From Escherichia coli (lineage in GTDB: Bacteria > Pseudomonadota > Gammaproteobacteria > Enterobacterales > Enterobacteriaceae), in the NCBI RefSeq assembly GCF_003334405.1, contig NZ_QOWM01000007.1: a DNA stretch of 64,000 nt; one strand, given 5' to 3'. Numbering within the stretch: position 1 is the stretch's first letter; each line of letters opens with the position of its first letter. Positions 23,017-36,744 of this stretch are shown here, one piece after another. The translations under genes were made by a program, and so were the position numbers. The notes under the pieces are model-generated. The model had not been told where the DNA came from. It was given only the letters and a program-made list of their open reading frames with translations, and ran no database searches.

Positions 23017-24663
23017 TCAGGATTTTTTCTTCTCGCGGCTATGCAGGCCACGTTTTTCCAGACCACGGTAAATCAGCTGCTGCTGAATAATGGTTACCAG
23101 GTTGCTGACGATATAGTACAGCACCAGACCTGACGGGAACCACAGGAAGAACACGGTGAAGATGACCGGCATAAAGGTCATGATCTTCTGCTGCATCGGG
23201 TCGGTCACTGTGGTCGGCGACATCTTCTGAATGAAGAACATCGTTACGCCCATCAGGATCGGCAGGATGTAGTACGGGTCCTGTGCCGACAGGTCGTGGA
23301 TCCACAGTGCAAACGGTGCCTGACGCAGTTCAACGGAACCCATCAGCATGTAGTACAACGCCAGGAAGATTGGCATCTGGATCAGCAGCGGGAAGCAGCC
23401 GCCCAGCGGGTTAACCTTCTCAGCTTTGTACAGCGCCATCATTTCCTGGCTGATACGCTGTTTGTCATCGCCCAGACGCTCACGCATTGCCTGAATCTTC
23501 GGCTGCAACATACGCATCTTCGCCATGGAGGTGTACTGCGCTTTGGTCAGCGGGTACATGATGCCACGAACGATAAAGGTGATGATGATAATGGAGAAGC
23601 CCCAGTTACCCACAAAGCTATGGATCCATTTCAGCAGTTTGAACAGCGGCTGAGAGATGAACCACAACCAACCGTAATCAACGGTCAGATCCAGGTGCGG
23701 AGCAACAGCTGCCATTTTGTCCTGGATTTCCGGGCCAACCCACAGGGTGCTGTTCATCGCGCCAGTCTGACCAGGCTGAACCAGTACCGGCTGAGATTTA
23801 TAGCCGATAGCGGCGATGCCGTTACCCAGATTAGCGGTATAGAAGTTGTTGGTACCGTCGTTATGCGGGATCCACGCCGTCGCGAAATACTGTTGCAGCA
23901 TCGCCACCCAACCACCTTTCGAAGAGATGTTCAGGTTTTCGTTATCGGCAATGGTATCGAACTTGTATTTCTCATACTTCTCGTCAGGCGTGGAGTACGC
24001 CGCGCCACGGAAGGTGTGCAGTGCGAAGTTGCTGCTTCCGGTATCGAGATGCGGTGGCAGAGTGATGGATTGCTTCAACTGACCAAACGAGGAGATTTCC
24101 AGCGGTTTCTCGCCAGCGTTCTGCACGTTGTAGTTGACGTTGACAGCGTAATCACCACGTTTCAGGACAAACGTTTTGGTAAACGTGTTGCCTGCCGCGT
24201 CGGTATACGTCATCGGCACCTGCAGTTCGTTTTGACCTTCAGCCAGCACATAAGCGTCTTTTTCAACGTTATACAGCGGACGCGGGCCGTTAGCCGGGTT
24301 ATCCGGGCCATCACGACCGGTCAGACCGCTCTGTGCCTGATAAATAAACTGCGGTGAAGTTTCCAACAGCTGGAACGGCTGGGTAGAGTTCAGCTCTTTC
24401 GGGTAAGCAGGCAGCAGAGCTTGCTCAACATCACCACCACGGGTGTTGATGGTCAGATCAAGCACGTCGGTCTTAACCGAGATCAGTTTCCCCTGGCCAC
24501 TGGCCGGTACGCCCTGGTCGGCGGCGCTACCCGCTGCGGTGGTCGTTGTCTGCGTGGTCTGTTGGGCCTGAGGTTGCGGGTTTTTATCCTGCTCCCAGGC
24601 TTGCCAGATCATGAAAGACACGAACAGCAAAGCGATGACTAAAAGATTGCGTTGCGAATCCAT
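23017..24663 (-). CDS. yidC: Membrane protein insertase YidC
   Basis: 548 aa; large periplasmic domain then conserved 5-TM core. Confidence 0.96.
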
Positions 24664-32786: not shown

Positions 32787-33599
32787 ATGGCTATTAAACT
32801 CATTGCTATCGATATGGATGGCACCCTTCTGCTGCCCGATCACACCATTTCACCCGCCGTTAAAAATGCGATTGCCGCAGCTCGCGCCCGTGGCGTGAAT
32901 GTCGTGCTAACGACGGGTCGCCCGTATGCAGGTGTGCACAACTACCTGAAAGAGCTGCATATGGAACAGCCGGGCGACTACTGCATTACTTATAACGGCG
33001 CGCTGGTACAGAAGGCCGCTGATGGTAGCACCGTGGCGCAAACTGCTCTCAGCTATGACGACTATCGTTTCCTGGAAAAACTCTCTCGCGAAGTCGGTTC
33101 TCATTTCCACGCCCTGGACCGCACCACGCTGTACACCGCCAACCGTGATATCAGCTACTACACGGTGCATGAATCCTTCGTTGCCACCATTCCGCTGGTG
33201 TTCTGCGAAGCGGAGAAAATGGACCCCAATACCCAGTTCCTGAAAGTGATGATGATTGATGAACCCGCCATCCTCGACCAGGCTATCGCGCGTATTCCGC
33301 AGGAAGTGAAAGAGAAATATACCGTGCTGAAAAGTGCGCCGTACTTCCTCGAAATCCTCGATAAACGCGTTAACAAAGGTACGGGGGTGAAATCACTGGC
33401 CGACGTGTTAGGTATTAAACCGGAAGAAATCATGGCGATTGGCGATCAGGAAAACGATATCGCAATGATTGAATATGCAGGCGTCGGTGTGGCGATGGAT
33501 AACGCTATTCCTTCAGTGAAAGAAGTGGCGAACTTTGTCACCAAATCTAACCTTGAAGATGGCGTGGCGTTTGCTATTGAGAAGTATGTGCTGAATTAA
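32787..33599 (+). CDS. yidA: HAD-family (Cof-type) sugar phosphatase YidA
   Basis: 270 aa; HAD motif I IAIDMDGTLL. Confidence 0.93.
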   Translation: MAIKLIAIDMDGTLLLPDHTISPAVKNAIAAARARGVNVVLTTGRPYAGVHNYLKELHMEQPGDYCITYNGALVQKAADGSTVAQTALSYDDYRFLEKLSREVGSHFHALDRTTLYTANRDISYYTVHESFVATIPLVFCEAEKMDPNTQFLKVMMIDEPAILDQAIARIPQEVKEKYTVLKSAPYFLEILDKRVNKGTGVKSLADVLGIKPEEIMAIGDQENDIAMIEYAGVGVAMDNAIPSVKEVANFVTKSNLEDGVAFAIEKYVLN

Positions 33600-33606
33600 T
33601 CTGTGG

Positions 33607-33637
33607 GCGGGCAAACAGCATAAACGCGTTTGCCCGC
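33607..33637. terminator. Hairpin between convergent yidA and yidX
   Basis: 10-bp stem gcgggcaaac / gtttgcccgc with 11-nt loop. Confidence 0.45.
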
Positions 33638-33644
33638 TTACTGA

Positions 33645-34301
33645 TTATTGGTTTACTGCATATACAACCAGAAATTGCAGCGGTGCAGTAATGATGTCCA
33701 GCGTAACAGTCACTGGCAGTAATGCTGCGGAAACACCATCCGGAATGCCTCTGGGTGAATAGTATTCATAAAATCGCACTTTAAATGGATGGTAGAACGC
33801 CATCACCTTTGAGTAATCCATGTTTTTATTTTTCTCATGGATTGTGCCTTTTAGGTTTTCCAGTGACCTGGTACAGTGTTGAACACCACAGGCAAAACCA
33901 TAATGCGTTGCCAGTGCCTTTTCTTCTTCGTTATTCCAGTAGTAGTAAAGCGATATTGTGCCGGTAAATTTCTTTTTCCCCGCATTTAAAACAAATCTTG
34001 CGTCATCGGCAACCTGAATATTGTGCCGGTTAAGTGCTGGATCATTGAGCATCTTAACGATGTCATCGGCACCATCAGTGATAAGGTAATCCAGCGATTC
34101 CCCTACAAAAACATAGCCTTTTGTTCCATTACTATCTTTTGCCTGCGATAGCCCAGTGATGGTGTCTGACTGCGATTGATACTTTCCTGAACTACCCTTT
34201 GCGGTATGGGAAACCAGAGCATACGAGATACAGCCTGAAAGCATCAGCGCCAGTGGGAATAAACCGGCAGCCTTAAAAAATCCCTTAAAATTCAACTTCA
34301 T
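33645..34301 (-). CDS. yidX: Lipoprotein YidX
   Basis: ATG at 34301 ([24 protein letters not shown]...) gives 218 aa with lipobox LSGC; track ORF to 34418 is a 5' extension. Confidence 0.85.
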
Positions 34302-34438
34302 GATTAATCCTTTAAACGAGTAGCTAAGCCGTTGAAAGCATACTCTTCTTTCCCTCCTGTTTAGCGCCTGATATCCCTTTTCAGATTTCTGCCCGACGCA
34401 TGTCATTTTTTTATGCATTGTTCTTTTTGTGATCTAAA

Positions 34439-34514
34439 TTGTAGTACAACAATATAAGTTTGTACTACATTACACGCACGGCAAACGCGAACGTCATCAC
34501 GCTGGTACTACAAA
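34439..34514. promoter_or_regulatory. Candidate DgoR operator repeats in dgo promoter
   Basis: ttGTAGTACaa (34439..34449), ttGTACTACat (34459..34469), ggtACTACaaa (about 34503..34514): inverted and direct copies of a GTAsTAC core. Confidence 0.6.
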
Positions 34515-34578
34515 GTTGCCGCGTTATGCATCGATCGGGGTAAAGTAGAGAAGAACATACAGAGCACAAGGACTCTCC

Positions 34579-35268
34579 ATGACTCTCAATAAAACCGATC
34601 GCATTGTCATTACGCTGGGTAAACAGATCGTTCACGGCAAATACGTGCCAGGCTCGCCGCTTCCGGCTGAGGCGGAACTCTGTGAGGAGTTTGCAACCTC
34701 GCGCAACATCATCCGTGAGGTGTTCCGTTCGCTGATGGCGAAGCGGCTGATTGAAATGAAACGTTATCGCGGGGCGTTTGTGGCACCGCGTAACCAGTGG
34801 AATTACCTCGACACTGACGTACTGCAATGGGTGCTGGAAAATGACTACGACCCACGGCTTATCAGTGCCATGAGCGAAGTGCGAAATCTGGTGGAACCGG
34901 CGATTGCCCGTTGGGCAGCAGAGCGCGCGACTTCCAGCGATCTGGCGCAGATTGAATCGGCGCTGAACGAGATGATTGCCAACAATCAGGACCGCGAAGC
35001 GTTTAACGAAGCGGATATTCGCTACCACGAGGCGGTGCTGCAGTCGGTGCATAACCCGGTGTTACAGCAACTTAGCATTGCGATCAGTTCGCTGCAGCGG
35101 GCGGTTTTTGAACGAACCTGGATGGGCGATGAGGCCAACATGCCGCAAACGCTCCAGGAACATAAGGCGCTGTTCGATGCGATACGACATCAGGACGGCG
35201 ATGCGGCAGAGCAGGCGGCGCTTACCATGATCGCCAGCTCGACACGAAGGTTAAAGGAAATCACATGA
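34579..35268 (+). CDS. dgoR: GntR/FadR-family repressor DgoR
   Basis: 229 aa; N-terminal winged HTH, FCD-type C-terminal domain. Confidence 0.93.
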   Translation: MTLNKTDRIVITLGKQIVHGKYVPGSPLPAEAELCEEFATSRNIIREVFRSLMAKRLIEMKRYRGAFVAPRNQWNYLDTDVLQWVLENDYDPRLISAMSEVRNLVEPAIARWAAERATSSDLAQIESALNEMIANNQDREAFNEADIRYHEAVLQSVHNPVLQQLSIAISSLQRAVFERTWMGDEANMPQTLQEHKALFDAIRHQDGDAAEQAALTMIASSTRRLKEIT

Positions 35269-36143
35269 CAGCTCGCTACATCGCAATTGACTGGGGATCG
35301 ACCAATCTGCGCGCCTGGCTTTATCAGGGCGACCACTGCCTGGAGAGCAGGCAATCAGAAGCAGGCGTCACGCGCCTGAACGGAAAATCTCCGGCTGCGG
35401 TGTTAGCAGAAGTCACGACCGACTGGCGTGAAGAGAAAACGCCAGTGGTAATGGCAGGAATGGTTGGCAGCAACGTCGGCTGGAAAGTTGCACCGTATTT
35501 ATCTGTTCCTGCCTGTTTTTCGTCTATTGGCGAACAATTAACGTCAGTTGGCGACAATATCTGGATTATTCCCGGATTATGTGTCTCTCATGACGATAAC
35601 CACAATGTGATGCGCGGCGAAGAAACACAATTGATCGGCGCGCGAGCTCTGGCTCCTTCCTCTCTTTATGTCATGCCCGGAACCCATTGCAAATGGGTGC
35701 AGGCCGATAGCCAGCAAATCAACGATTTTCGCACCGTGATGACCGGTGAATTACATCATTTACTGTTAAATCACTCATTGATTGGCGCAGGTTTGCCGCC
35801 GCAGGAAAACTCTGCCGATGCCTTCACAGCTGGCCTTGAGCGTGGTCTTAATACGCCCGCCATATTGCCGCAGCTTTTTGAAGTTCGCGCCTCGCATGTG
35901 CTGGGAACACTTCCCCGCGAACAGGTCAGCGAATTTCTCTCTGGTTTGTTGATTGGCGCAGAGGTCGCCAGTATGCGCGACTATGTGGCCCATCAACACG
36001 CCATCACCCTTGTCGCCGGAACATCGCTGACCGCGCGCTACCAGCAAGCCTTTCAGGCGATGGGTTGCGACGTGACGGCGGTGGCGGGCGACACGGCATT
36101 TCAGGCTGGTATAAGGAGCATCGCTCATGCAGTGGCAAACTAA
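35265..36143 (+). CDS. dgoK: 2-dehydro-3-deoxygalactonokinase DgoK
   Basis: 292 aa; start overlaps dgoR stop. Confidence 0.93.
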   Translation: MTARYIAIDWGSTNLRAWLYQGDHCLESRQSEAGVTRLNGKSPAAVLAEVTTDWREEKTPVVMAGMVGSNVGWKVAPYLSVPACFSSIGEQLTSVGDNIWIIPGLCVSHDDNHNVMRGEETQLIGARALAPSSLYVMPGTHCKWVQADSQQINDFRTVMTGELHHLLLNHSLIGAGLPPQENSADAFTAGLERGLNTPAILPQLFEVRASHVLGTLPREQVSEFLSGLLIGAEVASMRDYVAHQHAITLVAGTSLTARYQQAFQAMGCDVTAVAGDTAFQAGIRSIAHAVAN

Positions 36144-36744
36144 ACTCCCGCTGATCGCCATTTTGCGCGGTATTACGCCCGACGAGGCGCTGGCGCATGT
36201 TGGCGCGGTGATTGACGCCGGGTTCGACGCGGTTGAAATCCCGCTGAATTCCCCACAATGGGAGCAAAGCATTCCCGCCATCGTTGATGCGTACGGCGAC
36301 AAGGCGTTGATTGGCGCAGGTACGGTACTGAAACCTGAACAGGTCGATGCGCTCGCCAGGATGAGCTGTCAGCTCATCGTTACGCCCAATATCCATAGTG
36401 AAGTGATCCGCCGTGCGGTGGGCTACGGCATGACCGTCTGCCCCGGCTGCGCGACGGCGACCGAAGCCTTTACCGCGCTCGAAGCGGGCGCGCAGGCGCT
36501 GAAAATATTTCCGTCATCGGCTTTTGGTCCGCAATACATCAAAGCGTTAAAAGCGGTATTGCCATCGGACATCGCAGTCTTTGCCGTTGGCGGCGTGACG
36601 CCAGAAAACCTGGCGCAGTGGATAGACGCAGGTTGTGCAGGGGCGGGCTTAGGCAGCGATCTCTATCGCGCCGGGCAATCCGTAGAGCGCACCGCGCAGC
36701 AGGCAGCAGCATTTGTTAAGGCGTATCGAGAGGCAGTGCAATGA
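36127..36744 (+). CDS. dgoA: 2-dehydro-3-deoxy-6-phosphogalactonate aldolase DgoA
   Basis: 205 aa; overlaps dgoK by 17 nt. Confidence 0.93.

Follow-up and report, generated by a model that had tools for sequence, protein, structure and literature searches.

The window, by which we mean the whole 64-kb stretch of Escherichia coli DNA analysed here, carries the dgo locus. The coding sequence of yidX lies at 33645..34301 on the minus strand, according to the list of open reading frames and to how RefSeq annotates the identical locus of other E. coli strains. On the plus strand, dgoR (34579..35268) encodes a repressor of the GntR/FadR family and is the first gene of dgoRKADT. Its product matched PDB 7C7E, the entry for E. 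coli DgoR, over all 229 residues (E = 3.7e-149), and the orthologous gene is named DgoR in RefSeq E. coli genomes. The open reading frames of dgoK (35265-36143, plus strand) and dgoA (36127-36744, plus strand) are the first structural genes of the regulated operon; dgoA matched NF006600 (2-dehydro-3-deoxy-6-phosphogalactonate aldolase) with 333 bits against a cut-off of 207. Three short repeats, designated R1, R2, and R3, all lie within the yidX/dgoR intergenic region. They adjoin dgoR, the gene of the cognate regulator, as DgoR operators should. An earlier reading of this DNA from its letters alone (the sequence-only reading) had placed the repeats in a divergent yidX-dgoR promoter. The gene arrangement is as it described, but nothing ties the repeats to any yidX promoter.

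R1, at 34439..34449, reads TTGTAGTACAA and is a perfect inverted repeat, TTGTA-G-TACAA, with a central G. R2 (TTGTACTACAT, 34460..34470) and R3 (TGGTACTACAA, 34503..34513) each carry one mismatch to the palindrome. R3 is given here as the 11-mer in register with R1 and R2; before the shift of register, the same repeat reads GGTACTACAAA at 34504-34514. All three are inverted repeats of GT and AC boxes placed 3 nt apart (TTGTA-S-TACAA). The consensus for the DgoR family is TKGT/ACMA with the same 3-nt spacing (PMC4494728), and the left box of E. coli R3, TGGT, agrees with TKGT. The repeat centres fall at 34444, 34465, and 34508, so that R1 and R2 are 21 bp apart and R2 and R3 43 bp apart, centre to centre. 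Measured in helical turns, the distances of 21, 43, and 64 bp amount to about 2.0, 4.1, and 6.1, which places the three repeats on the same helical face.

The GTASTAC core was found seven times in the 64-kb window against 2.4 expected, a number reached in 1 of 100 shuffles, and three of the seven cores cluster inside 71 bp. With at most one mismatch allowed, TTGTASTACAW occurred at four places in the window, three of which were R1, R2, and R3; the corresponding 8 strand-matches compare with 2.2 expected and were reached in none of 100 shuffles. The sequence-only reading had reported three GTASTAC-type repeats, the first of them palindromic, and both the sequence and the shuffle statistics bear it out. 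Its coordinates were right for R1 and one base too low for R2 (34459-34469 instead of 34460-34470). The fourth match, at 23348-23358, lies inside yidC (23017-24663, minus strand) and encodes Leu-Tyr-Tyr-Met. Since it is accounted for by a Tyr-Tyr codon pair in coding sequence, it was regarded as a coincidence of codons and rejected as an operator. Within yidC, an exact copy of TTGTACTACAT is accompanied at a distance of 81 bp by another GTAGTAC core (23267-23277 and 23348-23358). The second core, at 23269, is likewise made up of Tyr-Tyr codons (TAC TAC) and was rejected as a DgoR site on the ground of coding coincidence.

R1 and R2 are, with near certainty, the DgoR operators published as IR1 and IR2. 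The Chaba laboratory has described DgoR as a dimeric GntR/FadR repressor with a perfect IR1 and an IR2 that contains one mismatch (PMC11705089, PMC12288454). Singh et al. 2019 (J Bacteriol 201:e00281-18) described these operators in E. coli K-12, as recounted in the later papers of the same laboratory. Window positions 34433-34454 are identical to IR1 as published, CTAAATTGTAGTACAACAATAT. The probe used in the electrophoretic mobility shift assay (EMSA), GTGATCTAAATTGTAGTACAACAATATAAGTTTGTACTACATTACACGCACG, is identical to 34429-34480, and therefore it includes R1 and R2 and excludes R3. Purified DgoR binds this probe, and D-galactonate releases it (PMC11705089, PMC12288454). According to the available text of Belliveau et al. 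(2018, PNAS; PMC6003448), Sort-Seq revealed a repressor footprint from -140 to -110 relative to the dgoR ATG, which corresponds to 34439..34469. The footprint is lost when dgoR is deleted or D-galactonate is supplied, and DgoR was pulled down by DNA from -145 to -110 (PMC6003448). Strong constitutive expression after deletion of dgoR was reported in Salmonella and also in PMC6003448.

Reg-Seq located the DgoR repressor site at -37..-28 and CRP at -50..-30. As the coordinates -37..-28 identify R1, the Reg-Seq 'DgoR upstream site' is R1 and the 'right site' is R2 by elimination; we therefore rejected the idea that either name is a mention of R3. Lin et al. 2020 used an undivided 250-bp fragment. 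These published data confirm the central proposal of the sequence-only reading, that the repeats are DgoR operators, for R1 and R2 through EMSA, Sort-Seq, and DgoR pull-down. All three repeats have been proposed before and two of them, R1 and R2, are proven. That the repeats are DgoR operators is textbook-level knowledge for the dgo operon, and because it is a rediscovery of known operators, the finding adds little by itself. The remaining interest lies only in the role of the predicted site R3.

The promoter positions used in this study were taken from the published Sort-Seq mapping. The inducible promoter, P1, has a class II CRP site at 34428..34449 on the plus strand, as seen from the Sort-Seq logo, Reg-Seq, and conservation. 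The left half of this CRP site, TGTGA, is at 34428-34432, and the TTGTA of its right half overlaps R1 in the left arm. The TGTGA logo and class II activation by CRP come from Sort-Seq, in the available text of PMC6003448. TTTTGTGATCT was conserved in our comparison of 80 dgoR loci, and TGTGATCT (34428-34435) had a mean of 1.81 bits. The -10 hexamer of P1, TACATT (34466..34471, plus strand), is the wild-type -10 element in the available text of Belliveau et al. (PMC6003448). From the Reg-Seq coordinates of CRP and DgoR, P1 would start at about 34476-34478. R1, at about -38..-28 of P1, overlaps the CRP/-35 region in the published mapping, and R2 overlaps the -10 hexamer, whose final base doubles as the last T of R2. 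The sequence-only reading had all three operators overlapping the dgo promoter; the two repeats shown to overlap a promoter are R1 and R2. R3 falls at about +27..+37 of P1, so that the repeats stand on both sides of the inferred P1 start (about 34477) on one helical face, with R3 downstream.

A downstream RNA polymerase site that is active in glucose, here called P2, occupies 34509..34549 on the plus strand and corresponds to the RNAP site that PMC6003448 maps to -70..-30 relative to the start codon of dgoR. Its -10 element, TAAAGT, is at 34541-34546, and GGTAAAGTA (34539-34547), which contains it, was nearly invariant across the 80 species (1.79 bits per column). The apparent -35 element is poor, either TTGCCG or TTGAGG, with a 19-bp spacer. 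R3 lies at about -50..-40 of P2, just upstream of its -35 region. A scan of 34250-34650 with a simple sigma-70 consensus and for terminators called no promoter and no terminator. The promoters of this region, P2 among them, escaped this simple scan and are non-consensus. A conserved ATTGT at 34417-34421 precedes the TTGT of R1 by exactly 21 bp and falls on the 21-bp lattice of R1, R2, and R3. It may represent half of a DgoR site, belong to the CRP flank, or serve as an alternative -35 element for one of the overlapping upstream promoters seen by Sort-Seq. At the lattice position between R2 and R3 (about 34481), neither a motif nor conservation indicated a fourth site in the 80 loci.

The intergenic region was found in 5,425 of 5,426 complete E. 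coli genomes and was at least 80% complete in 5,021 of them. Even in a divergent E. coli strain with 20 differences in 277 bp (93% identity over the spacer), R1, R2, and R3 were unchanged. Most of the intergenic region is missing from about 400 of the 5,425 genomes. The segment corresponding to window positions 34432-39195 is deleted in the O157:H7 strain 17B6-2, and that corresponding to 34397-39195 in strain 2018-05-2CC. The deleted segment comprises the operators, dgoRKAD, and most of dgoT; the right end is identical in both strains, and yidX is left beside a 114-nt remnant of dgoT and cbrA.

We then compared 195 bp around the operators in 80 dgoR loci that represent different species, both of the Enterobacteriaceae and of families close to them. 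R1, R2, and R3 were conserved at the same position upstream of the orthologous dgoR. R1 reached 1.94 bits per column and was a perfect palindrome in 75 of the 80 loci. R2 (1.76 bits per column) had exactly one mismatch in 72 loci and at most two in 79, and R3 (1.62 bits per column) had exactly one in 67 and at most two in 77; neither R2 nor R3 was perfect in any locus. The distance from R1 to R2 was 21 bp in 79 of 80 loci, and that from R2 to R3 was 43 bp in 71 and 42-44 bp in 79. R3 was followed by the P2 -10 element TAAAGT at a distance of 38 bp in 76 of 79 loci. The spacers were less conserved than the repeats, with 0.51 bits per column between R2 and R3, where the sequence is unconstrained, and 0.96 between R3 and the P2 -10 element; R3 stands out between them as an island of conservation. 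A gradation of operator quality is also conserved, R1 being perfect and R2 and R3 mostly one mismatch away from it.

The forms of R3 were few: TTGTACTGCAA in 32 species, TTGTACTTCAA in 16, TAGTACTACAA in 11, and TGGTACTACAA in Escherichia. The mismatch was at position 2 or at position 8. No locus lacked both changes, and the perfect form, TTGTACTACAA, was absent at R3 in all 80 loci; both changes were combined only in TGGTACTTCAA, at a single locus. The mismatch alternates by clade between the mirror-image arms of the repeat, and the sole intermediate is this double-mismatch TGGTACTTCAA, from Buttiauxella agrestis. The A of the right ACAA box was replaced in 62 of the 80 species. Wherever the motif was recognisable, the centre base of R3 was G or C, as in R1 and R2. 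The conserved positions of R3 were the informative positions of the DgoR motif, namely T1, G3, T4, A5, T7, C9, A10, and A11. The E. coli R3 11-mer, TGGTACTACAA, was also found at the R2 position in Affinibrenneria, and it is listed as the R2-position site in Pectobacterium and Sodalis (PMC4494728 S1 File). Taken together, the conservation, spacing, and mismatch patterns of the aligned loci indicate that R3 is under selection and that conservation within it follows the positions of the DgoR motif.

R3 has been predicted before. For E. coli b4479, Suvorova, Korostelev and Gelfand (2015, PLoS One) listed three DgoR sites as predictions, one of which, CACGCTGGTACTACAAAGTTG, is R3; they gave three-site sets also for E. 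fergusonii, Shigella flexneri, Salmonella, Klebsiella, Enterobacter, Cronobacter, and Serratia (PMC4494728 S1 File). This prediction and the strong conservation in our survey favour the view of the sequence-only reading that R3 is a candidate DgoR operator. S. flexneri (SF3769) has TTGTAGCGCAA in the place of R1, with two changes in the core, and intact R2 and R3 (PMC4494728 S1 File); in this lineage, repression may be weakened or the system may be decaying.

In the literature, we found no report of DgoR binding to R3 or of an effect of R3 mutation, and experimental groups have kept the two-repeat description as late as 2025 (PMC11705089, PMC12288454). Belliveau et al. mutagenised the whole intergenic region, and the available text of that paper describes a repressor signal only at -140..-110, with none at -76..-66, where R3 lies; it labels -70..-30 as an RNAP site (PMC6003448). 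The available Sort-Seq/Reg-Seq source data cover 55 positions around R1 and R2 with NA entries from 0 to +44, and R3 is outside this range.

The best explanation overall is that R1 and R2 are operators and that R3 is a weaker, auxiliary DgoR operator, a reading to which we assign a probability of about 0.65. R3 taken by itself is fairly likely to be a functional DgoR site, as judged from its predicted motif and its conservation. At P1, one DgoR dimer on R1 and another on R2 exclude RNA polymerase and CRP, and binding of D-galactonate releases DgoR. R3 would be a third, sub-optimal operator on the same helical face as R1 and R2, with the P1 start about 31 bp upstream of it and the start of the weak basal promoter P2 about 45 bp downstream. 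DgoR bound there could stabilise the R1/R2 complex by dimer-dimer contact or act as a roadblock. When abundant, it could also hold P2 down, which would place the basal expression of dgoR under negative autoregulation. Stabilising the repression of P1 and limiting P2 are not exclusive, and R3 might serve one purpose or both; activation of P2 by DgoR at R3 would be less likely. A loop between R2 and R3 of 43 bp centre to centre would be unusually tight. In most species, as in the form TTGTACTGCAA, the R3 mismatch falls on the A of the right ACAA box, a critical base, and might make binding much weaker.

The main alternative is that only R1 and R2 are DgoR operators and that R3 is conserved as a part of P2 (an UP-like or -35-proximal element) or as the site of another factor, its likeness to the DgoR motif being residual and perhaps derived from an old duplication. 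Since the spacing of R3 to the P2 -10 element, 38 bp in 76 of 79 species, is more rigid than its spacing to R2, the conservation of R3 could reflect the architecture of P2. This alternative also draws on the annotation of -70..-30 as an RNAP site, where the available text of Belliveau et al. (PMC6003448) gives no repressor feature, on the two-repeat model used in the experimental literature, and on the fact that R3 is never a perfect palindrome and that, in 62 of the 80 species, its right ACAA box has another base in place of the A. However, the conserved and variable positions of R3 follow the DgoR motif and not a -35 or UP element. The centre base alternates only between G and C, and the mismatch shifts between symmetric arms by clade while the total stays at one. 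R3 also ends before the expected -35 element of P2, whether this is at 34518-34523 (17-bp spacer) or is the TTGCCG at 34516-34521, and the identical 11-mer is the R2 operator in other genera. We therefore consider it unlikely, though worth keeping in mind, that R3 belongs to P2 or to another factor.

FadR-family proteins can also activate transcription from near -40, as FadR does at fabA. By analogy, DgoR at R3, at about -45 of P2, might recruit RNA polymerase and sustain basal transcription of dgoR while P1 is shut. R3 is centred at about -45 relative to the inferred start of P2 and keeps a rigid distance to the P2 -10 element, and PMC6003448 describes P2 as the promoter active in glucose, when DgoR is bound to DNA. 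However, deletion of dgoR leads to strong constitutive expression (in Salmonella, and in PMC6003448), and a centre at -45 misses the classical -41.5 position, which makes activation from R3 very improbable. That R3 is conserved because the P1 transcript carries an RNA element at this point of its 5' leader, or that the repeat is a chance match, is more improbable still. R3 does lie within the leader, at about +27..+37, and forms with R2 an imperfect inverted repeat of 13 nt with 85% complementarity, but R2 is upstream of the transcription start. For 17 diverse leaders, RNAalifold predicted no consensus pairs (0 kcal/mol), and Rfam gave no match at E <= 1 in 33500-35500; with neither a consensus structure nor a family match, the RNA explanation was rejected. 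A chance match is excluded by the conservation of R3 in about 78 of 80 species, together with the motif statistics.

Returning to R3 as an auxiliary operator, we give an even chance to a two-tier DgoR circuit in which R3 is kept imperfect and in phase with R1/R2 and the basal promoter, P1 being controlled through R1 and R2 and P2 being autoregulated through R3. Such a circuit would combine tight inducible control of the CRP-dependent P1 with concentration-dependent control of P2, by repression or even activation. If this is true, the current model, with its two repeats, gives an incomplete account of a textbook GntR/FadR repressor. DgoR is a model sugar-acid repressor of the GntR/FadR family, and galactonate use influences gut colonisation by E. 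coli. R3 was predicted in 2015 and has been omitted from experimental models since, yet the constraint on its sequence and position is as strong as that on the proven sites. Its role bears on quantitative models of the dgo promoter, a 'gold standard' in Sort-Seq and Reg-Seq, and is also relevant to the design of galactonate biosensors.

Compared with the IR1/IR2 system of E. coli K-12, R1 and R2 are identical in sequence, in distance to dgoR, and in overlap with the CRP-dependent inducible promoter, whereas the experimental model for K-12 contains two repeats and no R3. The regulon of Suvorova et al. 2015 lists all three E. coli sites as predictions only and gives no spacing, site hierarchy, or promoter positions; to this, the survey of 80 species adds the fixed spacing and the pattern in which one mismatch is always present.

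The nearest analogue for the arrangement of R1/R2 and R3 is LldR, a FadR-type repressor of sugar or organic-acid metabolism whose operators flank the transcription start. R1/R2 and R3 likewise bracket the P1 start on one helical face. More than 100 bp separate the LldR operators, against only 43 bp between R2 and R3 of DgoR. At E. coli lldPRD, repression through the operators O1 and O2 is reported to rely on looping, both the distance between the operators and their angular orientation being decisive (PMC8689689). NanR is a looser parallel than LldR, with three dimers on three repeats. As described in PMC8012715, several FadR-type dimers bind the (GGTATA)3 operator of a sugar-acid operon, which consists of three closely spaced repeats. 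These are contiguous direct hexamer repeats, whereas the DgoR sites are separate 11-bp inverted repeats placed 21 and 43 bp apart.
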